Position numbers and translations under genes: made by a program
Shown: one piece after another, positions 204 to 40,953 of the stretch
How the letters are laid out: each line of letters opens with the position of its first letter
Numbering within the stretch: position 1 is the first letter of the stretch
Notes under the pieces: generated by a model
Databases searched by the model: none
What the model was told of the DNA's origin: nothing
The model's input: the letters and a program-made list of their open reading frames with translations, nothing else
IMG/VR virus record: IMGVR_UViG_3300018875_000003
Coordinates: 32,001-96,000 of that record
Length of the DNA stretch: 64,000 nucleotides
Direction: 5' to 3' (one strand)
From: a virus

Positions 204-1952
204 TTAGATTGTCATTGCCCAAGTTACGCGCATGCCTGTGCTGGCATCCTTCGTTACAGGACCGATACCGGAGATGTTGGACATCTTTCCGTCTTCCTGC
301 TCAGCGAACATACCCACTTGATAGATAACATGTGTCGATTCGCTGTACTGATACTTCGCAGTCACACTGTCTGTGTCCTGAAGCGTCACTTTGAATGTGA
401 TCTGCTTGCCGTCTGCGGAAACTTCGTATCCTGTGCCTTCTACCTGCAGCACACCGTTCAGCGTAACTTCCAGGATGAATTTGCCGTTTGCATCTTTCAC
501 AGCTGCTTTAGCCAGTGCGTAAGTTGTTACAGCCGCGGAGATGTTCAGGGTTTCTGTTTTCTCCACGTTCATTGGACCCGGCACGCCTTTCGGGAAGTCT
601 GCTACAAACTGCACAGCCGTTCCGCTGTTGACGCGATATTCGAAAGTCAGCAGACCTGGTGTTTCCACCACTGGCGGCTTCTTCGATGGATCGAGCGGAT
701 CAACACCAACTGGAGCTGCGCTGAATTGAACAATACCCTTGGCAGAGTTCATGATCCATACATCGCCCTGACCGAGCGAGAGACCTTTATCTACGATCTT
801 GTATTCCTTGACGGTATTGTCTAGTGCCTGGTGACGAACAGCTACCAGCTCCATCAGAGGAGCATCTGCCATATCGAAAATCAGGTGACTGTTATCCAGC
901 TGGTCTTGGAAGCGAACGTTCACTTTTTCACCGGCAGCGGGCGCAGTAGTAAATACCACGTTTGCAACGTCCTGCGTGAATGCTACGTCTGCAGCATTTG
1001 TATCCAGCTTGGCACTGAGGATTTTCAGTACTTTGTTTGTTGGATTCAGTGGGAATTTTGTTTGTGTGCCGTCACCGGTGACGGTTACTGTTTTTTCCGT
1101 GAAAGCGATCGGCTTCGTAGGGAAGACTTCGATTTCTGGATCACCTGTGCTGACTACGGATGGATATTGAATCATCTGGCGCGCGTCTTTAAACTCGCCT
1201 TCCATCTTGATTCTGATCTTGTCGGAATCCGAGAACTCAACCGGCTTGTTATCCGGATGACCTGCTGGCTTGCCGCCAAGACCCATGAAGCCCAGGGAGT
1301 AGAACAGCTTAAACTGGTAGTCTACCTGAACGTTCGTTTTCGCTTCAGCGAAGTATACCTTGCCCATCTTGTAGTCGATCGCATAATGCTTGTCTGCTTC
1401 CGAAGGAACGTCAGACAGCGTATAGGCTTGACCATTTACAGTCACGACTTCGGACCCTTCCGCGATTTCTGCATAGTCGCTTACGACCTTGCGGAACGTG
1501 ATGGATACGGTGTTTTTCGGTGCTACTGCAAATCGAACGGTTGCTGTGTCTGCATCTTTGATGGATACATCTTTATTCAGGACCAGATCCTGCCCATCAA
1601 CGCGAACAGATACGATTCTCAAGAGACGTGTGATTTCCGGAATGACAAGCTCAGTGCTTGTATTAGCGGAACCTACATCAGTCGTGTAGGTTCCTTCGGA
1701 TTCACAGGCATGCTTGAGATCAAATACATAAACGCCGTTTGCATTCGGAGTCAGCGTAGTGTCGCCTTTATCCGTGTGCTTTGCGCGAGTCTTGCCGGCA
1801 GGATCAGACATCATCTGTGCGATGATGTTGTTCAGACTGTGAACAGCGATATTCTTCTTCTCTTTTGTGAAGAAGACACCATCCTGATCGTTGTACATCT
1901 CCAGCTTAACGTGGCCCTTTGGATTCAGAGCGCTATGAAAGTCTCTTAACAT
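204..1952 (-). CDS. Virion structural protein (beta-rich, fibre/collar/baseplate-like), paralog of 1973..4030
   Basis: 582 aa; N-term KGHVKLE..KN and C-term VGMF..KD.STGMRVTW shared with neighbour; repeated Ig-like F..AP..V...Y units. Confidence 0.6.
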   Translation of the reverse strand: MLRDFHSALNPKGHVKLEMYNDQDGVFFTKEKKNIAVHSLNNIIAQMMSDPAGKTRAKHTDKGDTTLTPNANGVYVFDLKHACESEGTYTTDVGSANTSTELVIPEITRLLRIVSVRVDGQDLVLNKDVSIKDADTATVRFAVAPKNTVSITFRKVVSDYAEIAEGSEVVTVNGQAYTLSDVPSEADKHYAIDYKMGKVYFAEAKTNVQVDYQFKLFYSLGFMGLGGKPAGHPDNKPVEFSDSDKIRIKMEGEFKDARQMIQYPSVVSTGDPEIEVFPTKPIAFTEKTVTVTGDGTQTKFPLNPTNKVLKILSAKLDTNAADVAFTQDVANVVFTTAPAAGEKVNVRFQDQLDNSHLIFDMADAPLMELVAVRHQALDNTVKEYKIVDKGLSLGQGDVWIMNSAKGIVQFSAAPVGVDPLDPSKKPPVVETPGLLTFEYRVNSGTAVQFVADFPKGVPGPMNVEKTETLNISAAVTTYALAKAAVKDANGKFILEVTLNGVLQVEGTGYEVSADGKQITFKVTLQDTDSVTAKYQYSESTHVIYQVGMFAEQEDGKMSNISGIGPVTKDASTGMRVTWAMTI

Positions 1953-1972
1953 TGTCTGTTTCCCCCTATTTC

Positions 1973-4030
1973 TTAGAATCCACCTTTAAAGGCGTCTCCG
2001 TCTTTATTCAGCAGCTTGATTGTCCATGTGACGCGGATACCGGTTGTGATATCCTTGACGGTTTCGCCTGTACGAACCAGGGAGTAAGCATCAACTGGGA
2101 ATCCAGTGAATCCCTCTACCTTGTCGTCCGTGCGCGGGCCGTTAAAGAGTCCCATTTCGCGGATCGTTACATTGTAAGCAGGTACTTGCTCAGGGAACTC
2201 AGCGATGAAGCTAACGGTTCCTTTATCCAGCTGGTACCATGGGTAGGCGGTTCCTGCTTTTGGCTTTTCGATAACGGCGCGGTGATAGCCCGTAGCGAAG
2301 CCTGGCAGATCAGGAGTCGTAAACACGATCTCGTAGTTTACAACAGCAGACTTGTCTGCATTGCGGTCACTGATCACGATGGACTTTTTATCCGCAGACA
2401 GTTTGTACTTACCTGCGCCGAAGTCCTCATCGGAAGTAACAGCAGCAAATACCTCGCCGGTTTCTGCATTGGCTACGACAACCGTGTCCAGTGCATAAGC
2501 GGAAGTGTACGTCTTGGTGGCCGAAGTGTACTTGTAGTCAGCAGTGATCACTGCATCTTGAGCTGGAGCAGTTGTGAAGGTAATCACGCCTTTATCCTGC
2601 GTAAAGTTGCTTACTGCCGCGTCGTCTACTTTCAGCACCAGGGTTCCAGGAACCAGTGTCGTATGAGCCAGTGTGAACTTCACAGCGGTTGCATCGCCTT
2701 TGCCGACTGCTTCTGCCGTTACGGTTTTGGTTACATTTCCGCTTGTCAGAGCAGCTGCAGCTTTCAGGTCGTAGCGCTCTCCTGTAATGTCATACGTTAC
2801 GTGCAGTCCGCTCAGCGTTTTGCTGAATTGCAGCGTTCCGCGTTTTGCATCCAGCAGGTATTTGCCGTCAGCCAGGTCTGCTTCCTTATCAACACGCTGC
2901 AGCTCTGTGCCGTCATATTCGACAACCAGGCTTTCCGGAACGATTGGGAAGTGTTCCAGCTGCGCCAGATACGGAGGAACGGTAGTCGTGCTGTACGCGG
3001 TCACGGTCTGGAAGGACTTCGTGAAGTTCTCGAACTCGTGAGCCAGTGTGTTCATCGAAGTCGTCAGACCATCAGAACGAAGACCTGTAATCACGATGTT
3101 CTCGCCAGTTGTGATCGAAGGATCTTTACCGGAGAACCGCAGCTCGACTTCATGAGAGGCTTCACGGTCAAGACCAGTGATAACCTTCTGTGCTGCTTCT
3201 GGGGCTGACAGAGCGGAATCATACGTCTCGATCGTCTCTTTCAGAGTGCCATCGACGTAAATGCCAATTTGACCACCCGTGTTGGACTTCTCGTACTGAA
3301 TAACGAGCCGGCTAAGCTTCTCAGTGAGCTTTAGGGATGCGTTCAGCGTATCAGCCGTCGCTTTACCGCCTGCTACATCAAAGCCGCCTGCAAGGGCAAT
3401 GCGTGCGTCTGTGAGGTCGATCGCACGGTCCAAACCATCACCGAGTCCGATGAACATGTTTGTCTGGGAGCTGTAGATTTCAGAAGTAATTGCAATCGAT
3501 CCAGCGACGGGCTTCGTCGAGATGCTGAATGCTTTCTTCCCTACCTGATCCGAGGTTTCTTCTTTCAGATATACCGTGATTGGACGATAGCTGAATGTGA
3601 TTTTGAACTGGCTGTCATCGACAGCTTTCCAGAACACATTCGGTGCGAAGTTCAATTGATCAACGCCATCCACAACTGCCGAGATGTTGCCATTCAGTCC
3701 GATGTGGAATTTCTTCGTTACCCCGGTTGCATCTTTCGGTACGCGGTTTTTATACAGAGTGCGATCCGGATCGCCGGAGAATGCACGCAGCATAATTTCT
3801 TCCGCACCATCTACGACCAAGTTGGGTTGGTCAGCCAGAACGCCAAGGCTGTTGCCAGCTTCGTCAATGCGCTCAATAGTAATGTGACCTTTGGCTGCAA
3901 ACTCGAACGTGTCGTTCAGCCCGCTGCCTGCTTGAGGAGCCGAAGCCGATTGATACTTTTTCATCAGCTTTTCTTTGTTCGGGCCATCCGGCAGCTTGCT
4001 CAGCAATTTACCGATTGCTTTCAAATTCAT
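1973..4030 (-). CDS. Virion structural protein (beta-rich, fibre/collar/baseplate-like)
   Basis: 685 aa; KGHITIE..PNLVV and IREMGLF..KDITTGIRVTW motifs; in structural operon. Confidence 0.6.
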   Translation of the reverse strand: MNLKAIGKLLSKLPDGPNKEKLMKKYQSASAPQAGSGLNDTFEFAAKGHITIERIDEAGNSLGVLADQPNLVVDGAEEIMLRAFSGDPDRTLYKNRVPKDATGVTKKFHIGLNGNISAVVDGVDQLNFAPNVFWKAVDDSQFKITFSYRPITVYLKEETSDQVGKKAFSISTKPVAGSIAITSEIYSSQTNMFIGLGDGLDRAIDLTDARIALAGGFDVAGGKATADTLNASLKLTEKLSRLVIQYEKSNTGGQIGIYVDGTLKETIETYDSALSAPEAAQKVITGLDREASHEVELRFSGKDPSITTGENIVITGLRSDGLTTSMNTLAHEFENFTKSFQTVTAYSTTTVPPYLAQLEHFPIVPESLVVEYDGTELQRVDKEADLADGKYLLDAKRGTLQFSKTLSGLHVTYDITGERYDLKAAAALTSGNVTKTVTAEAVGKGDATAVKFTLAHTTLVPGTLVLKVDDAAVSNFTQDKGVITFTTAPAQDAVITADYKYTSATKTYTSAYALDTVVVANAETGEVFAAVTSDEDFGAGKYKLSADKKSIVISDRNADKSAVVNYEIVFTTPDLPGFATGYHRAVIEKPKAGTAYPWYQLDKGTVSFIAEFPEQVPAYNVTIREMGLFNGPRTDDKVEGFTGFPVDAYSLVRTGETVKDITTGIRVTWTIKLLNKDGDAFKGGF

Positions 4031-6096
4031 TATGAGTCCACTCCTTTAAGGGTATTGACGCCAAGTACAAACTCACCGAGCGGCCATCCTTGATCAAAGT
4101 CATTGCCCAGCGCATACTGCACCTTCTCTTTGCCGCTAATCGTGAGTCGATCGGACAACTCAGGCAGGATATTCTGGGTTTTGAGGTCTCTCGGAAGGAT
4201 TTTGCTCTGATCGCTGATATTTGGCATGTATACCGGGTAAAAGCCGACTGTCGGATTCAGTGAAACCACTTCATCCATCTTGCCGTCAATATCTGCCCGG
4301 ATTTTTGTATCATCATGGATCAGGACATTGTAGTACTCCAGCAGCCTGTGCTGGTAGTTTGCAATGATCTGATGCGTGAATCCGATGCTCATGTGTGTCT
4401 GCTCACTTATTTCTGCAGAAAGTCCGGCAGACGATGCTATCGATTCTCCAAACAGGGCATCCATCGATTCTGCCACGCGATTAAACAGATTTTCAGTCAT
4501 CGCGTGCGACTCGTTCAGGCTTACACCCATTACATCCACAGCGCTCAGTAGAGGCGCCTGACGGGCTTCTACAGCGTCCGCCATGCCAACTGCCCATTCC
4601 TCTGAATAGGCGGTCTTAATCGCCGTATAGCCGCTGTGAATCCGTTCTCCCATGCCTGCAAAATAGCTGAACACATCGGTCATTTCGTAATCAACGATGA
4701 TGTGAGCTTTTTCCTGGACGCGGTAGATGAGCTTATCCAGTAGTGTGACAAAATAGTCGTCGATATGCGGCAGCAGGTCGCCACCGATCAATTCCTTAAT
4801 AATGTCTTTTACAATAATGTATTGCGTTACATTATCATCCTCGTAGAGGTCGTACTGGACGATACCCGCTGGTCTGCTCTTATTCAGGTCAGATCCATCA
4901 TGGAGGTTATGCTGGACGATGGATTGCATCTGGTCGATCGCCAGATAAGGGAAGATCGCATCCTGGACGAATAACCGCAGCAGCATCAGCAGCTCTTCGG
5001 CCGGCTCGGCAACGAGCGCTTCCAGGACTTCTGTTTTAAAGTAGCGAAGTTCGGTCTTTGTGGACTCCAGATGGACGTAATCCACCTGTTCCTGCAATGC
5101 AGGTTCTAACAATAATTGTACTGCACTGCTTGTCGCAATCACAAAGTCGTCTTGAGGCATCAGATCATAGGATGCCTTCAATATCTCACTCTTTATATCG
5201 AAATCAATGGTTCCATCTAAATAAATCGCTTGATTTTCCCCGTTTTCTACGAAGACTTCGATAGTGGACTTCTTTACGATCCGATCGAGTGAATCTTCCA
5301 GGAAAACTTCGAGGATCATCGTCATCATATCGGTTGTCCGGTTGCGATAGTTATCCGCCACCCGGTACAGCTTCATAATCTCAGAAAACTCTTTCTGGGA
5401 TGACATGAAGCTTTCTTTGAACTCATGTCCGAGTTCTTTGCCGATCATCTGGAACAATTCGGTGAGAACGGCAGTCACCTGCTCATTCACCTCGGAAGTT
5501 CCGCCCTTCCCGATTTCAATCTGCTCTTCTCCGGCCATCGTAGCCTCTTCCGCCTGATCAATCAGGTGGTCATAGCGAATACGGTCTTTTCGGAGTGTAG
5601 CCTGCAGAGCATCTTCTGTAATCAGGGAGATCAAGCTTTCGATCTCTCCTTCCCGGACCATCGTCATGATGTCCAGAAGATCATAGAGCATTTCATAGAC
5701 CAGCAATTCGTTCTGGTCGTCTTTCAGATCGGAGTAGACCCAATCGCTTCGATAGCCGACATCGGATATTCCTCTGATTCGGTACTGATTCAGCCGCCTG
5801 ATCTCGCCTGGCTGCGGCCCATTGCCGAGTGTTAACCAGTAGGATTCGGATACCTCATCCTGTGGCGTATCGAGAACAGCTTTGATTCGAAATATAGCGC
5901 CGTCTACGTTGTTTGCTGGGATACCGGTATCAACGTACTTTTGTGTCACTGCCGATTTGGTCTCACCTTCCGCAGAAATAACGCGAAGGCGATAGACACC
6001 TTCGCTTCCTGGGAATGATACCTGTTTGAAAATCCGTTCTTTCAGCGGATTCTTGGAATCAGCAGTGAAAGGCATGACACTCATTTCTTCATTCAT
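4030..6096 (-). CDS. Hypothetical virion-region protein
   Basis: 688 aa ORF translationally coupled to the next gene; acidic; C-term GWPLGEFVLGVN. Confidence 0.6.
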   Translation of the reverse strand: MNEEMSVMPFTADSKNPLKERIFKQVSFPGSEGVYRLRVISAEGETKSAVTQKYVDTGIPANNVDGAIFRIKAVLDTPQDEVSESYWLTLGNGPQPGEIRRLNQYRIRGISDVGYRSDWVYSDLKDDQNELLVYEMLYDLLDIMTMVREGEIESLISLITEDALQATLRKDRIRYDHLIDQAEEATMAGEEQIEIGKGGTSEVNEQVTAVLTELFQMIGKELGHEFKESFMSSQKEFSEIMKLYRVADNYRNRTTDMMTMILEVFLEDSLDRIVKKSTIEVFVENGENQAIYLDGTIDFDIKSEILKASYDLMPQDDFVIATSSAVQLLLEPALQEQVDYVHLESTKTELRYFKTEVLEALVAEPAEELLMLLRLFVQDAIFPYLAIDQMQSIVQHNLHDGSDLNKSRPAGIVQYDLYEDDNVTQYIIVKDIIKELIGGDLLPHIDDYFVTLLDKLIYRVQEKAHIIVDYEMTDVFSYFAGMGERIHSGYTAIKTAYSEEWAVGMADAVEARQAPLLSAVDVMGVSLNESHAMTENLFNRVAESMDALFGESIASSAGLSAEISEQTHMSIGFTHQIIANYQHRLLEYYNVLIHDDTKIRADIDGKMDEVVSLNPTVGFYPVYMPNISDQSKILPRDLKTQNILPELSDRLTISGKEKVQYALGNDFDQGWPLGEFVLGVNTLKGVDS

Positions 6097-6121
6097 GATG
6101 GTCCCTGCCTTTCACGCTATA

Positions 6122-6622
6122 TTATTCTTCTGTTTTTGCTGCTGCTTTCGCAGTTGTGCGTTTTGTGGTGGTTTTTGCCGGAGCTGGCTCTGCTTTTGCT
6201 TCTTCGGCAGCTGTATCTTCTGCTTTCAGCGTAACGACTTCAGCTTCGCCCACTTCTTTCGCATTCGGCATATCTGCATTACCTGCAGCCAGCTGATCAG
6301 CACGATCGGCAGCCATCGATGGCACCGGCTGAATCACTTTGCCTTCATGGTTTCTGCGGAACTCCGCGGTATTGGTGTTGAAAATCTTCGTGAATTTATC
6401 TTTCCATGCTTCAATCTCGGAAGCTGGAAGATTCCCCTCATATAACACCAACGCTGGCGTCTTACACAACACAGCGTGAACGATATTTTTCATCGTCTCA
6501 GGCTTGGTCTCGTCATACTCAAATGACCGTGTAGGATTAGCCAGCGTAAGGTAAGTGTTAGTGAGGGGATCAAAATAGCCGTGTTTACGTGGAGCCAAGC
6601 CCACGGTAACTTTTGTCGCCAT
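6122..6622 (-). CDS. Hypothetical protein downstream of capsid gene
   Basis: 166 aa; GGAGG RBS; Ala/Glu/Lys/Thr-rich tail. Confidence 0.7.
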   Translation of the reverse strand: MATKVTVGLAPRKHGYFDPLTNTYLTLANPTRSFEYDETKPETMKNIVHAVLCKTPALVLYEGNLPASEIEAWKDKFTKIFNTNTAEFRRNHEGKVIQPVPSMAADRADQLAAGNADMPNAKEVGEAEVVTLKAEDTAAEEAKAEPAPAKTTTKRTTAKAAAKTEE

Positions 6623-31741: not shown

Positions 31742-32047
31742 ATGACTAAACAATCTAAAGCATTGAATGCACTCTGCGTTTTGTATCCTCATGCGCGCCC
31801 TGCTGCAGGTGAAGGATACAATATGATCCGTGCTGAGCGTTATGACAACCCTGTTGACTTTCAGAATCTTGTTACCTGTCTTCTTGCTGCGTTCCCCTCT
31901 TCCCTATTCGATCATGCAGATTATGTGGAGGTTAGATTCTCCGCCGACACGATCACAGTGTACACTGGCCACTTCCTGGTTGAGTCTGACGTATATAACG
32001 TTCGATTCCTCTATGAAGCTTCGTACCAGACAGACACTGACTCATGA
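31742..32047 (+). CDS. Hypothetical protein
   Basis: GGAGG RBS; 101 aa. Confidence 0.65.
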   Translation: MTKQSKALNALCVLYPHARPAAGEGYNMIRAERYDNPVDFQNLVTCLLAAFPSSLFDHADYVEVRFSADTITVYTGHFLVESDVYNVRFLYEASYQTDTDS

Positions 32048-36456: not shown

Positions 36457-36648
36457 ATGGATTTTTTGTTTTCAACCTTGGCATTCATCTTGTTTGAATC
36501 CATCGGCGTGTGGGGGCTTATCATTTGCCTGCACGATCTGCGCAATCCTTCGATTGGATTCTGGTATAGATTCAAATATACAGGTGTCGTTATTCTTCTG
36601 ATGCTTGTTATCTTCGCTTTTTACTTGTTAGATATTCATACATCATAG
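36457..36648 (+). CDS. Small two-TM protein
   Basis: AGGAGG RBS; two hydrophobic helices. Confidence 0.6.
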   Translation: MDFLFSTLAFILFESIGVWGLIICLHDLRNPSIGFWYRFKYTGVVILLMLVIFAFYLLDIHTS

Positions 36649-36654
36649 GAAGTA

Positions 36655-36717
36655 TTTCATATTTCATACGTTATACGATATATTTCCTACGATGTATGAT
36701 GTATTTCGTATTTCATA
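36655..36717. repeat. Heptad repeat array, 9 in-phase units
   Basis: tttcata tttcata cgttata cgatata tttccta cgatgta tgatgta tttcgta tttcata. Confidence 0.75.
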
Positions 36718-36736
36718 GGATTGGAGGACATATCAT

Positions 36737-36973
36737 ATGAATTTAATCGTAGCTTACCAGAAGTCCATCACTCCCCTCAAACCTGATGTATGGGAAGTCG
36801 GCAAGCGATATGAGATCACTGACAACCATGGCAATCTAGTCTATGGTGATTTTTACGCTGCTCATGGTCGCCAGCTGTGCTTCACTAATTGCTTTTGCGG
36901 AGATGACTACGAACCTGGAGAGTACTTTTATTTCCCGGATGAAATCAAGGAGGCTGTTGTCGTTGACGATTAA
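36737..36973 (+). CDS. Hypothetical protein
   Basis: GGAGG RBS; MNLIVAY. Confidence 0.65.
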   Translation: MNLIVAYQKSITPLKPDVWEVGKRYEITDNHGNLVYGDFYAAHGRQLCFTNCFCGDDYEPGEYFYFPDEIKEAVVVDD

Positions 36974-36974
36974 G

Positions 36975-37412
36975 ATGAATTATAACTTTCAGTTTTACAA
37001 GGAGATTAAGCTCCAGCTGATCCGCCGTGACTATACCGGCTACGATGCCAAGCGTTTTACGCTGAACGGCACCAATCAGAATGTATGGATTCCAAATAAG
37101 CATCTGCTGGAAGACGGCACGATCAAGCAGGATGAGAACATTGATTATGTTTTCAGACGTGCCATCCGTCAGCTGGAGCTTGCTGGATACACCGGCCCGA
37201 TTATCGGCATCAAGCGCACTACCAAGGTCGATCCGATCATCTATGTCCGGCAGCTTACTTGGGATGAGCAGCAGGCGCTCCTCTCCCCTCTCGAAGCCAA
37301 GCTTAAAGAAGAAGGCTTATCGAAACGCAAAATCTATAGGGCGCTTGCTGATGCCAGAGACAGCAAGATTAGTGATATCCAAGACCAATTCCCAAAGGAG
37401 AATGAATTATGA
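36975..37412 (+). CDS. Hypothetical protein
   Basis: ATG right after upstream stop; AKRF..NQNVWIPNKH. Confidence 0.6.
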   Translation: MNYNFQFYKEIKLQLIRRDYTGYDAKRFTLNGTNQNVWIPNKHLLEDGTIKQDENIDYVFRRAIRQLELAGYTGPIIGIKRTTKVDPIIYVRQLTWDEQQALLSPLEAKLKEEGLSKRKIYRALADARDSKISDIQDQFPKENEL

Positions 37413-37852
37413 CTGGACACAATGACTATTTCCGGTTGCGAAAAGTATTCTTAAAGAACTGCACCACCGATCTGCTGGGCGCCAGCAAGGAAACGATCGA
37501 TGACATGATTGCTTATCTTCAGGCAACGCGTGAAATGACGCCGGATGATACTTCCCTTGAAGAGATCATCAAACGATTCTATTGGCGGCACCAGGAGGAA
37601 TACGGCAGCGGCCATATCAATTCGCGGTCGATCACTCTCATTCCCGGGCATCATCTCTATGATGATTTCGTTCTGGCTGCCGGCGATCTGCTGCCAGACG
37701 GGTTTAACTCTCCGGCGCAGCGCGAAGAACGTATCATTCAATTCATCGTTAAATATACACCTGCCTATAGCGAGTTCAATCTGATCGGAACCGAGAACGA
37801 CATCATCATGAAGCAAAGAGTCGATCACGTTCTCTGCCGGTTCAAAGTTTAA
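37409..37852 (+). CDS. Hypothetical protein
   Basis: AAGGAG RBS; ATGA overlap. Confidence 0.65.
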   Translation: MTGHNDYFRLRKVFLKNCTTDLLGASKETIDDMIAYLQATREMTPDDTSLEEIIKRFYWRHQEEYGSGHINSRSITLIPGHHLYDDFVLAAGDLLPDGFNSPAQREERIIQFIVKYTPAYSEFNLIGTENDIIMKQRVDHVLCRFKV

Positions 37853-37868
37853 TCCAATACGAAATCTC

Positions 37869-37900
37869 AGGTCTGCTCTTTCGAGGGCAGGCCTTTTTTT
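37869..37900 (+). terminator. Intrinsic terminator
   Basis: aggtctgctc-tttc-gagggcaggcct + T tract. Confidence 0.75.
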
Positions 37901-37916
37901 GTATGCAAAGGAGGAA

Positions 37917-38069
37917 ATGAGTATGTCCCAACCTACTGTTCTTGATGATCCGGAGTTCCAAACCATGCAATGGGGGTTCGATCCCACCGGTTACGAGCAG
38001 GATGTCGATTCTTACAAATTATGCGGCTGCGAACATGACGAATTTTGTCTTGAATGTGTGCCATTTTAG
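37917..38069 (+). CDS. 50-aa Cys-containing peptide (not in ORF track)
   Basis: AAGGAGG RBS; C-term CGCEHDEFCLECVPF. Confidence 0.55.
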   Translation: MSMSQPTVLDDPEFQTMQWGFDPTGYEQDVDSYKLCGCEHDEFCLECVPF

Positions 38070-38080
38070 GAGGATATGTC

Positions 38081-38320
38081 ATGGAGAAATTTATCATCAT
38101 CGATCGCAATGATCGACAGATTTTGCACGGTCCGCAGCACTTGCTGGTGGACACTTTAAAGGAGCTGGGTACGCATCCAGACTTCTTTTACGACTACTTC
38201 AGCGGCTTGGATGATCAAGACTACCAGGAGCTGTACGACAGCACGGTGTCGGAGTTGTCCGATGAATTTAAAATTGTGGAGGTTAACGATGAACATTTAT
38301 ACGTCTGTGAGCGGTATTGA
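38081..38320 (+). CDS. Hypothetical acidic protein
   Basis: AGGAGG RBS. Confidence 0.65.
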   Translation: MEKFIIIDRNDRQILHGPQHLLVDTLKELGTHPDFFYDYFSGLDDQDYQELYDSTVSELSDEFKIVEVNDEHLYVCERY

Positions 38321-38576
38321 TCTACAGGATCGAATCTACTTTCTCCAGAAGACATTTCTACCGATTCAACTCAATGTGGATTTGATTCGGGCGGACACCC
38401 TGCATCTGCAGGATAAGGATGACGAGGCTGCCGAGCTGGTCGGCAAGATCGAGGAAGAATGCGCAAAGCTGGGCATTAAGATCTATCAGCCGATGCCGAT
38501 CAGCATGAAGTCCGGCGAAGCTTATCGGCAGAACGCTGTCCAGTGTTACGAGGCGCAAACGAAAATTGACGCATAA
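38289..38576 (+). CDS. Hypothetical protein
   Basis: GGAGG RBS before MNIYTS. Confidence 0.6.
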   Translation: MNIYTSVSGIDLQDRIYFLQKTFLPIQLNVDLIRADTLHLQDKDDEAAELVGKIEEECAKLGIKIYQPMPISMKSGEAYRQNAVQCYEAQTKIDA

Positions 38577-38643
38577 AGTCGGCTTGGCGACTATAAATAG
38601 GCCTTTGGCCAAGCGCGGGCTCCCGGGTCGTCGGGAGTATGGC
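38577..38643 (+). ncRNA. Pistol-like ribozyme
   Basis: P1 AGUCG/CGACU; loop GCUUGG pairs with CCAAGC (pseudoknot); AUAAAUAG linker; P2 GCC/GGC; GCG; P3 GCUCCCG/CGGGAGU. Confidence 0.78.
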
Positions 38644-38674
38644 AACACATACTATTCCAAACGAGGTGCTTACT

Positions 38675-38887
38675 ATGAATAACAACGAAATTGTACGCTA
38701 TTTTATGAAACCTATTCAGAATAACTTCGCTCTTGTCGTGGCAACCCGCAGCAAGGGCGATATCACGATCGAAGAAGGCGCGAAGCCTTTTGTGAAAGGT
38801 CGTTACACGATGTATGCCAAGAATCGTCAGGCCCTCGAATCGAGAGTCCATGAGGTGCTGTCTCAGCAAGATCCTTTCGCTTCTTGA
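38675..38887 (+). CDS. Hypothetical protein
   Basis: GAGGTG RBS just after the pistol motif. Confidence 0.65.
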   Translation: MNNNEIVRYFMKPIQNNFALVVATRSKGDITIEEGAKPFVKGRYTMYAKNRQALESRVHEVLSQQDPFAS

Positions 38888-39252
38888 TTCGTTTCCCTAT
38901 GCCTGTAACCACCCCATGTATAGGGTTTTAAATGGGTTTTAATCTTTTCCAAAATTGGACAGACTCTGCCCCAAGGCTGCTGTATATGTATCTTACTTCG
39001 TAAGCTCATTCTAAAGAAGGATCAGACGATTCTGTGCGACAGTTTCCTTCTTGTTTCGGAAGCTGCCGTTTTTGCTCCTCCTTTTTATTTTATCATTCTA
39101 CTTCCAAAGAAAGCTGACGATAAATACCAGCGTTACTTCTTTCGATTCCTTCGTTAGCTTTCTCTATATATAAAGATTACCGGAAAACATGGGGTAAATA
39201 CACACAGTCACAGAATGTTCACAATTTGTTCACAATTAGCTTATAATTAACT

Positions 39253-39281
39253 TTGTAATGCGTTACATTCTACATTAGAAT
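39253..39281 (+). promoter_or_regulatory. SigA-type promoter overlapped by operator TGTAATGCGTTACA
   Basis: TTGTAA-17-TAGAAT; operator 39254-39267. Confidence 0.6.
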
Positions 39282-39317
39282 CTAAATACAATCACCATTC
39301 GACAGGAGAAGATCATC

Positions 39318-39701
39318 ATGACTAATATTCCAGTAACACCAGCAGCATCCACAGGCGAAGCGCATACTTACGAAAGAAGATGCGATGTATGCAGCCAGGT
39401 TAAAGAGCTTCACGTCCGAGCATCCAGCTGCGGCCCAATCTCGTTCGCATACTGCGTAGAATGCCTTCAGAAGGGCGCAGAGCCTTACGGGGCACTAGCA
39501 GCCTACCTATCGCAAGTCGTGGACAAGGGAAGCGATCTGGAGCCGGATAAGAACATGATTCATCCCGGATACCAGCAGCTTATCGATGTGACCCTGGAAG
39601 TTGTCGGCAAGACTCGTGAAGAGTTCTATGCAGCTGTCGATAAAGATATCCAAGACTATATCGACTTCATGAATAACCTTGATGAGGAGTCTGTGGAATA
39701 A
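39318..39701 (+). CDS. Zn-finger hypothetical protein
   Basis: CDVC..ASSCGPISFAYCVEC..GAEPY. Confidence 0.7.
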   Translation: MTNIPVTPAASTGEAHTYERRCDVCSQVKELHVRASSCGPISFAYCVECLQKGAEPYGALAAYLSQVVDKGSDLEPDKNMIHPGYQQLIDVTLEVVGKTREEFYAAVDKDIQDYIDFMNNLDEESVE

Positions 39702-40222
39702 TGTATCTGGTGCAATATAAAGACCAGACCAGCTATGGCGAACTCAAAGTTTCTATCTGCAAAGATCAGTACGAAGTAGAACAGATGTGGAATCTTGATG
39801 ATTCCGCCCTGGACATGATCGACGTCAGAGAAGTGGATGAATACTTCCGCGTTGTTGTTGCCGGCTCTCGTCATTTCAAAGACTACGATCGCCTTTCCCG
39901 TGAACTCGATTACCTACTGCAGTTCAAAAAGAACGCGATCATCGTATCCGGAAACGCAGAAGGAGCAGACAAGCTTGGTGAGCAATATGCCAGGGATCGA
40001 GATCTGCTGATCGATACGTATATTCCAGATTGGCGCCCTCAAGGTCCAAAAGGCCCGTATGATAATGCTGCTGGTCATAAACGCAATCGTGAGATGGCAG
40101 ACAATGCCGATGCTGCCGTAATCTTCTGGGATGGTGTTAGCCGTGGATCGGAAGGCATGATCAATTATTGCAAGCGTATTGGCCTTGATCACAGAGTTAT
40201 TAAATATAATCTTGCAATGTAA
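39701..40222 (+). CDS. SLOG-family (DUF2493/YspA-like) protein
   Basis: VVAGSRHF, VSGNAEGAD, AG..RN.EM, FWDG.SRG. Confidence 0.8.
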   Translation: MYLVQYKDQTSYGELKVSICKDQYEVEQMWNLDDSALDMIDVREVDEYFRVVVAGSRHFKDYDRLSRELDYLLQFKKNAIIVSGNAEGADKLGEQYARDRDLLIDTYIPDWRPQGPKGPYDNAAGHKRNREMADNADAAVIFWDGVSRGSEGMINYCKRIGLDHRVIKYNLAM

Positions 40223-40254
40223 CGTATAACATTGTCGAATAAAGGGGATTTAAC

Positions 40255-40478
40255 ATGAAACGCGAGGAATTATTAAGTCATGTGGCGCAGGCCAATGGTC
40301 ACATCTGGTTTAACAATGGCAAGACACGTAGCCGTTGTGTCACTGGGTTGGTTACATGATCTGCTATTACACCGCCAGTAAGCCTAATTATACCCAGTGC
40401 ATACCTGTCGATGTTTTCGCCAAGTGGGCGCAGGGTGTCGGTAAAGTTGGAGAGAAGGAGGCTACTTCGAATGGATGA
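40255..40478 (+). pseudogene. Possible frameshifted small gene
   Basis: MKREELL..VTGLVT* ends near 40359; the -1 frame continues YMICYY..FAKWAQG..* overlapping the next start. Confidence 0.4.
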
Positions 40479-40953
40479 GCAGTTAAAGAACTGGGCTAAA
40501 CATCGCCCTCCGGGCTTCCCTAATCTTGATGCGGTAACAGTGAAGCAATATCGCGCGGGGCTGGGCTTACTTGCATTGGAGGTATGCGAAGGCTTTCTGG
40601 ATATTCCGCCGCTTCCTGATAGCATAGAAGAGGCGTGCCAGACTGACGGGCTTTATTATGACATTCCATTCTTCCGCAGCGATCCGATTTGGTCTATATC
40701 TGGCGAACGCACTCTGCTGGTTGTCCATAAGGTCGAAGACAGGTCGATAACTGGCGTGTATCGATTCGACTTCAAAGCGACACAGATCGATGGGAATCGC
40801 GTCGATTACTGGATAAAAGCGTATGACCAGCGCGGAGAAAGATCGACATCGCGCGAACTTGTTTTATACGAGAATAAAGAGTGTTGGACGATGATTCCCG
40901 ATCATTCGACAATGAAGCTGTCCGATTACCTGAGAGAGGAGGTGAGAGCGTGA
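40471..40953 (+). CDS. Hypothetical protein
   Basis: AAGGAGG RBS before MDEQLK. Confidence 0.65.
   Translation: MDEQLKNWAKHRPPGFPNLDAVTVKQYRAGLGLLALEVCEGFLDIPPLPDSIEEACQTDGLYYDIPFFRSDPIWSISGERTLLVVHKVEDRSITGVYRFDFKATQIDGNRVDYWIKAYDQRGERSTSRELVLYENKECWTMIPDHSTMKLSDYLREEVRA

Follow-up and report, generated by a model that had tools for sequence, protein, structure and literature searches.

The window analyzed here is a 64,000-nt stretch (positions 32,001 to 96,000) of the 117-kb virus record IMGVR_UViG_3300018875_000003, and all coordinates below count from its first base. The record encodes a major head protein, a portal protein, a large terminase, and a helicase, along with a UvsX-like recombinase, a clamp-loader-like ATPase, and an RNase H, and judging by its sequence the source is a large tailed phage. 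The terminase is closest to that of a Moorella phage (43%), followed by those of Bacillus jumbo phages (33–39%), and the phage probably infects Bacillota. This terminase likeness agrees with the association of pistol ribozymes with Firmicutes and phages that is reported in Harris 2015. On the plus strand, ORFs of 121 and 70 aa are separated by a 98-nt gap, most of which is occupied by an RNA element that is almost certainly a member of the pistol ribozyme family. The 121-aa protein had no relatives in IMG/VR, and relatives of the 70-aa protein were found on one other contig alone (L125, a 206-kb IMG/VR contig). The locus comprises the following parts.

38211–38576, plus strand: upstream ORF of 121 aa, no family match; its stop codon TAA (38574–38576) abuts the first base of the ribozyme
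38577–38580 with 38589–38592, plus strand: P1 hairpin, 4/4 pairs, spanning 38577–38592
38581–38588, plus strand: P1 loop of 8 nt, containing the 5′ strand of the pseudoknot (38582–38588)
38582–38588 with 38608–38614, plus strand: pseudoknot, 7/7 pairs
38593–38600, plus strand: linker AUAAAUAG, invariant in all four members of the sub-type described below
38601–38603, plus strand: 5′ strand of P2, GCC, pairing with 38641–38643 in three Watson–Crick pairs
38604–38607, plus strand: turn UUUG; U38604 corresponds to U29 of env25 and G38607 to purine-32
38608–38614, plus strand: 3′ strand of the pseudoknot, GCCAAGC; G38608 is the counterpart of the Mg-binding G33
38615–38617, plus strand: GCG, counterparts of env25 G40 (general base), C41, and G42 by model alignment
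38618, plus strand: extra G with no 3′ partner
38619–38626 with 38631–38638, plus strand: P3 hairpin, 8 pairs, closed by G·U, with a GUCG loop
38639–38640, plus strand: junction A-U in the consensus GU columns; predicted scissile bond between A38639 and U38640
38641–38644, plus strand: 3′ strand of P2, GGC, followed by A38644, which lies opposite G38600
38663–38887, plus strand: downstream ORF of 70 aa, no family match, with a Shine–Dalgarno (SD) sequence GAGGUG at 38663–38668 and its ATG at 38675

The junction AU and the first G of P2 form an ATG (38639–38641) that is in frame with the downstream gene, so that an ORF caller lengthens the 70-aa gene to 82 aa. We rejected this triplet as a start codon: it has no SD, and it reads AUA in L125 and AUC in the two more distant relatives described below (L134 and L136). 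Two further elements near the locus were found by matching consensus patterns, namely a strong terminator-like hairpin (11-bp stem followed by a T-run) upstream at 37869–37894 and a near-consensus sigma-70-like promoter site (11/12) downstream at 39218–39247. They flank the two genes and the ribozyme, and suggest a short transcript of two genes. The 430 nt that separate the 70-aa gene from the gene after it (38888–39317) hold no plus-strand ORF of at least 50 aa, and a permissive Rfam scan of this stretch gave no credible match.

The original prediction, made from the letters of the DNA, was of a pistol-like ribozyme, and this is borne out by the Rfam 15 covariance model of the family (RF02679, Pistol). 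The check that it proposed, cmsearch with this model, gave a match at 38577–38644 on the plus strand that, at 49.1 bits, is not poor but well above the gathering score of 34.5, and that spans the whole model (positions 1–68 of 68). The E value was 6.2e-6 in the 64-kb window, 3.9e-7 in a 4-kb scan, and 2.6e-9 in a search of the element's own genome. Across the whole record (the 64-kb window and the other 53 kb), Pistol at this site was the sole Rfam family above threshold. RF02679 had no matches in 14 control genomes, and no hammerhead, twister, or other Rfam family apart from Pistol matched 36500–40500 even at E ≤ 1. The predicted start at 38577 stands, and the predicted end at 38643 moves by one base, since the model match reaches 38644. 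P1, the pseudoknot, the linker, P2, the GCG, and P3 are all present as foreseen, with the pseudoknot counted here as 7 bp instead of 6. The exact 25-base core of the ribozyme had no match in IMG/VR. Folding of the single sequence, which is unable to represent the pseudoknot, gave a minimum free energy (MFE) z-score of –1.75. The MFE fold favors a competing GGCC/GGCC hairpin; we considered this hairpin as a conserved switch and rejected it, as the L134 and L136 sequences cannot form it.

The element has the P1, pseudoknot, P2, and P3 architecture of the standard pistol (RF02679; Weinberg 2015; Harris 2015; structures 5K7C and 5KTJ), and shares with it the pseudoknot of 6–7 bp, the linker core AUAAAUA (located by model alignment), the GCG, and a 2-nt junction containing the scissile bond. 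The P3-to-P2 junction of the window is exactly 2 nt long (A38639 and U38640), with the U at +1 retained. In the mechanistic literature, N1 of G40 is the general base, Mg2+ at N7 of G33 supplies the water that serves as general acid, and the junction is splayed by a U(+1)·U29 wobble together with a contact from N2 of G(–1) to O6 of G42; the roles of U29 and purine-32 are taken from Kostenbader & York 2019. By model alignment, every catalytic position named in this literature is retained (U29, purine-32, G33, G40, C41, G42, and U(+1)), and by analogy we expect the window counterparts G38615, G38608, U38604, and G38617 to act as they do in the family.

The departures from the standard pistol lie at position –1, at the base of P3, and in the turn. 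The model alignment has A38639 at the consensus G column, so that the junction indeed reads AU and not GU, as first noted. An A at this position offers no N2 amine, which makes the contact with O6 of G42 impossible in the same manner; removal of this O6 reportedly costs 700-fold (Wilson 2019, through a citing paper), and by analogy an A at –1 may slow the variant. The single extra G before P3 was likewise correctly read: G38618 has no 3′ partner, and the model alignment flags a break at the first pair of P3. G38618 and G38619 compete for one U (U38638), which makes the extra base readable in two ways, and it may be inserted right after the G42 counterpart or may bulge out as a single nucleotide where P3 begins. 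In the standard pistol, P3 begins straight after the GCG (the consensus architecture, not a defining trait stated in the literature), whereas the window has one unpartnered G at 38618/38619. Standard P3 helices are closed by G-C, U·G, C-G, U-A, or A-U, in contrast to the G·U of the window; the sole P3 closed by G·U among the 41 standard pistols listed belongs to L092, whose parse is doubtful. In the turn, U38606 replaces the consensus A by model alignment. This base would be position 31 by a constant +1 offset between Rfam columns and env25 numbers, which we anchored on env25 purine-32, G33, G40, C41, and G42. The texts consulted gave no account of what the A at this position of the turn does.

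To judge how unusual these departures are, we scanned IMG/VR with a pistol-core pattern that put no constraint on the junction, which gave at least 119 stretches. One rule was applied to every locus collected, and a sequence counted as parsed if it had P1 with 4/4 pairs, at least 6/7 pairs in the pseudoknot, a P3 with 4 or more contiguous pairs, a 2-nt junction, and at least 2 pairs in P2. Identical sequences were merged, matches less than 16 nt from the start of a locus or less than 140 nt from its end were excluded, and sequences with 3/4 pairs in P1 were filtered out (L068, L086, and the probable chance matches L037 and L096). L001, L128, and L150 were excluded as duplicates of the window or of the L125 contig. 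Among the matches listed, 45 of 48 unique sequences were parsed by this rule. L022, L076, and L115 failed; by eye, L076 has a GU junction and a C·A mismatch in P3, and L022 reads GUC. The junctions of the 45 parsed unique pistols, again among the matches listed, were GU in 37, AU in 7, and GA in 1, the last in the doubtfully parsed L092.

The –1 position of the standard pistol is G, and the A of the window is a state that also occurs in standard-architecture pistols (3 of 41 among the matches listed). These three IMG/VR sequences (L010, L021, and L118) have the AU junction of the window and score above the gathering score (53.1, 49.4, and 61.7 bits, respectively); unlike the window, they have no extra base, keep the turn A, and close P3 with G-C or U-A. 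Harris 2015 describes cleavage at a "modestly conserved" GU, with a junction whose identity varies somewhat and whose length is strictly conserved, and a 2017 review agrees. Because GU is described in this way and AU recurs in standard pistols, we conclude that the AU junction alone is ordinary natural variation. The turn U is also found, rarely, in standard pistols whose junction is the normal GU and which lack the extra base (L114, which is identical to L117, and a copy in L163 that scores 68.6 bits).

The extra base behaves differently from these two states. Among the matches listed, four of the 45 unique pistols that were parsed had an unpartnered base between the GCG and P3, against 0 of the 41 standard ones. 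The four are the window element (49.1 bits), the element on the L125 contig (47.3 bits), and two elements on metagenome contigs (L134, 45.8 bits; L136, 42.8 bits), a range of 42.8–49.1 bits versus 49.4–73.8 bits for the scored standard pistols. All four carry the extra G, close P3 with G·U, read AU at the junction, have U in place of the consensus turn A, and continue with an A after P2. L134 and L136 combine the same departures as the window with other P1, pseudoknot, P2, and P3 sequences. Fisher tests on the parsed table associated the turn U with the extra base (p = 1e-4) and the extra base with AU (p = 2e-4), p values that make the associations look stronger than they are because the targeted searches required UUUGG and GCGG and the members are perhaps 2–3 independent lineages; owing to the same pre-filter, the association of turn U with extra G is partly one of ascertainment. 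Within this sub-type of four sequences, the window and L125 are related to one another, and L134 and L136 have identical P2 helices.

The sub-type is rare by searches with the UUUGG/GCGG pattern. In IMG/VR the pattern was found in one stretch, which lies on the L125 contig; in the metagenome collection, 2 of 9 stretches were real and 7 were chance; and in species-representative genomes, 0 of 12 were real, with P1 at most 3/4 and the pseudoknot at most 5/7. We found no published description of a sub-type with the extra G and AU, and the published alignment of 500 pistol sequences may already contain it. The new finding is a modest one, a sub-type that recurs and covaries, has AU at its predicted cut site and an additional G bordering the active site, and in every member lies shortly before a start codon.

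We examined covariation across the four members in P1, the pseudoknot, P2, and the closing pair of P3; the interior of P3 lacks a common register, and this variable helix was beyond MAFFT alignment. All 60 of the 60 cells were paired, and 6 of the 15 pairs were changed on both sides (2 of 4 in P1, 2 of 7 in the pseudoknot, and 2 of 3 in P2). In a control in which the partners were slid by 1–3 columns, 24–52% of cells were paired and there were no double-sided changes. P3 is a contiguous stem of 6–9 pairs in each member, built from entirely dissimilar sequences. Against this drift of the helices, the four members show no change in the AU, the GCG, or the turn. Because three further sequences show the same departures and every helix is preserved by compensatory changes, the data argue for a maintained sub-type rather than a decaying copy. 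Of the two words offered in the original prediction, attenuated and variant, variant is therefore the better.

The L125 contig belongs to a diverged related phage in which the pistol lies at the syntenic place. The marker that led to this phage is a 173-aa protein encoded at 39701–40222, about 1 kb downstream of the ribozyme, which contains a YAcAr/SLOG-family domain (Pfam PF10686, E 8e-15). This gene is 66% identical in the L125 phage, the 70-aa gene that follows the ribozyme is 78% identical, and the genes that precede the ribozyme in the two phages could not be aligned. With the tip of P3 set aside, only 2 bases (38603 and 38641) distinguish the L125 ribozyme from that of the window. These bases are partners in P2, and the C-G pair of the window is U-A in L125. 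A 212-kb contig from another run covers 38252–39000 with 52 differences, and none of the 34 listed falls within 38544–38656, which is no more than suggestive of conservation.

The placement of the element between genes recurs as well. In all four members, the upstream stop codon ends between –2 and +1 of the first base of the ribozyme, and an SD and ATG follow 26–37 nt after the predicted cut (in the window, the ATG at 38675 is 35 nt after it). The downstream proteins are unrelated across the three groups of the sub-type. Placement after the stop codon of a gene is shared with standard pistols, for which an upstream ORF ended at most 30 nt from the ribozyme in 28 of the 41 sampled; an SD and start codon 15–60 nt past the cut were found in 3 of the 41 by a crude filter (both counts among the matches listed). 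Given this layout of stop codon, ribozyme, and SD-ATG, we read the element as a probable intercistronic processing site. No demonstrated biological role of pistols was found in the literature searched.

Taken together, we favor the reading that the window element is an active pistol self-cleaver within a polycistronic phage mRNA, to which we assign a probability of about 0.75. The plus-strand polycistronic RNA would fold into P1, the pseudoknot with the P1 loop, P3, and the short P2, and these four helices would set the A38639–U38640 junction against the conserved core. As extrapolated from the family, G38615 (the G40 counterpart) would activate the 2′-OH of A38639, and a hydrated Mg2+ at N7 of G38608 (the G33 counterpart) would protonate the leaving group, with the cut predicted between A38639 and U38640. 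The upstream product would be the 121-aa cistron ending in a 2′,3′-cyclic phosphate, with the folded ribozyme as its 3′ end; the downstream product would begin with a 5′-OH at U38640 and carry a 35-nt leader to the ATG of the 70-aa gene. Such a cut would separate the fates of the two cistrons with respect to stability and, possibly, to translation of the downstream gene.

The most serious competing explanation is that the element derives from a pistol but is attenuated or catalytically dead, with the fold kept and cleavage very slow or lost. It might then serve as a structured intercistronic element that, for instance, stabilizes the 3′ end of the upstream cistron or binds a protein. The change of G to A at –1 loses the contact from N2 to O6 of G42 that is known from the structures, a base is inserted beside the G42 counterpart, a nearly invariant turn A has become U, and the Rfam scores fall below those of most standard pistols; moreover, the covariation reports selection on the fold and not on catalysis. 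However, every base with an assigned catalytic role is retained, and two of the departures have precedents in good matches to the family, with AU in three standard-architecture pistols (49.4–61.7 bits) and the turn U in a standard pistol of 68.6 bits. The invariance of AU, GCG, and turn in four members whose helices drift is as expected for an active site, and L134 and L136 sit amid several Twister-P5 ribozymes, a setting typical of working self-cleavers. On balance we consider loss of activity rather unlikely, and the active self-cleaver remains our preferred reading.

Two other explanations bear on the family assignment itself. The pseudoknot hammerhead, as described in Zhan et al. 2024 (PMC11300833), has a 6-bp pseudoknot and helices and connectivity that are essentially those of a pistol, so that the Pistol model might in principle have misassigned an element of this or another class. 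According to the same paper, its core loop is longer (of the C3 U G A U G A9 type) and its general-acid chemistry is different, whereas the window has the short pistol-type turn UUUGG in place of a CUGAUGA-type core loop, together with the AUAAAUA linker and GCG of pistols; with no hammerhead model matching at E ≤ 1, we regard misassignment as very improbable. Chance likeness in an intergenic hairpin region is, in our estimate, effectively excluded. The modest folding z-score is compatible with chance, but the E values of 6.2e-6 to 2.6e-9, the clean control genomes, the syntenic copy in L125, and the covariation of two further members in every helix all speak against it.

Returning to the element as an active pistol, we also considered how the sub-type might cope without the usual contact at –1. 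The added G may compensate for the lost contact with O6 of G42. In a fuller form of this idea, the A(–1), the added G, and the turn U of the window, L125, L134, and L136 would be co-adapted, with a rewired –1 contact, to give a pistol that cleaves at AU with normal speed; we offer this tentatively and would not bet on it. Another phage copy of a pistol is routine, since the class is well studied, and the added value of this one is modest: it lies in a recurrent, covarying sub-type in which the –1 G is replaced and a base is added beside G42. Both changes fall on the contact between N2 of G53 and O6 of G42 that has been debated in structural and atom-replacement studies. If the RNAs of the sub-type cleave well, this contact would be dispensable or replaceable, and designs for trans-acting pistols would be freed from the present rule of a GU target. 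If the co-adaptation is real, nature would have provided in this sub-type a "mutant cycle" that bears on the contested role of G42. In addition, the succession of stop codon, ribozyme, and SD/ATG about 30 nt past the cut makes the locus a clean natural case in which effects of intercistronic self-cleavage on phage mRNA could be studied.

The surveyed loci contained several other arrangements of ribozymes. On the L134 metagenome contig, four Twister-P5 matches and the variant pistol form a dense array on the minus strand (2693–6419). On L136, the minus-strand stretch 1152–3884 holds three Twister-P5 matches, a standard pistol (1152–1221, 61.5 bits), and the variant pistol (1651–1720), with the standard and variant pistols approximately 430 nt apart. 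Three pistols lie within 1.6 kb on the viral contig L163 (2063–3614; 73.8, 63.9, and 68.6 bits), the third of which is the copy that combines the rare turn U with a normal GU junction. Finally, near-identical standard pistols of a widespread family head phage tRNA arrays. In L031 (5432–8339), a pistol at 5432–5494 is followed by nine tRNA matches, the first of which lies about 180 nt beyond the end of the pistol. In L056 (2080–2295), the end of the pistol at 2142 is followed by a tRNA that begins at 2144; because the predicted cut lies a few bases before the 5′ end of this first tRNA, the L056 ribozyme may take part in tRNA 5′ processing.
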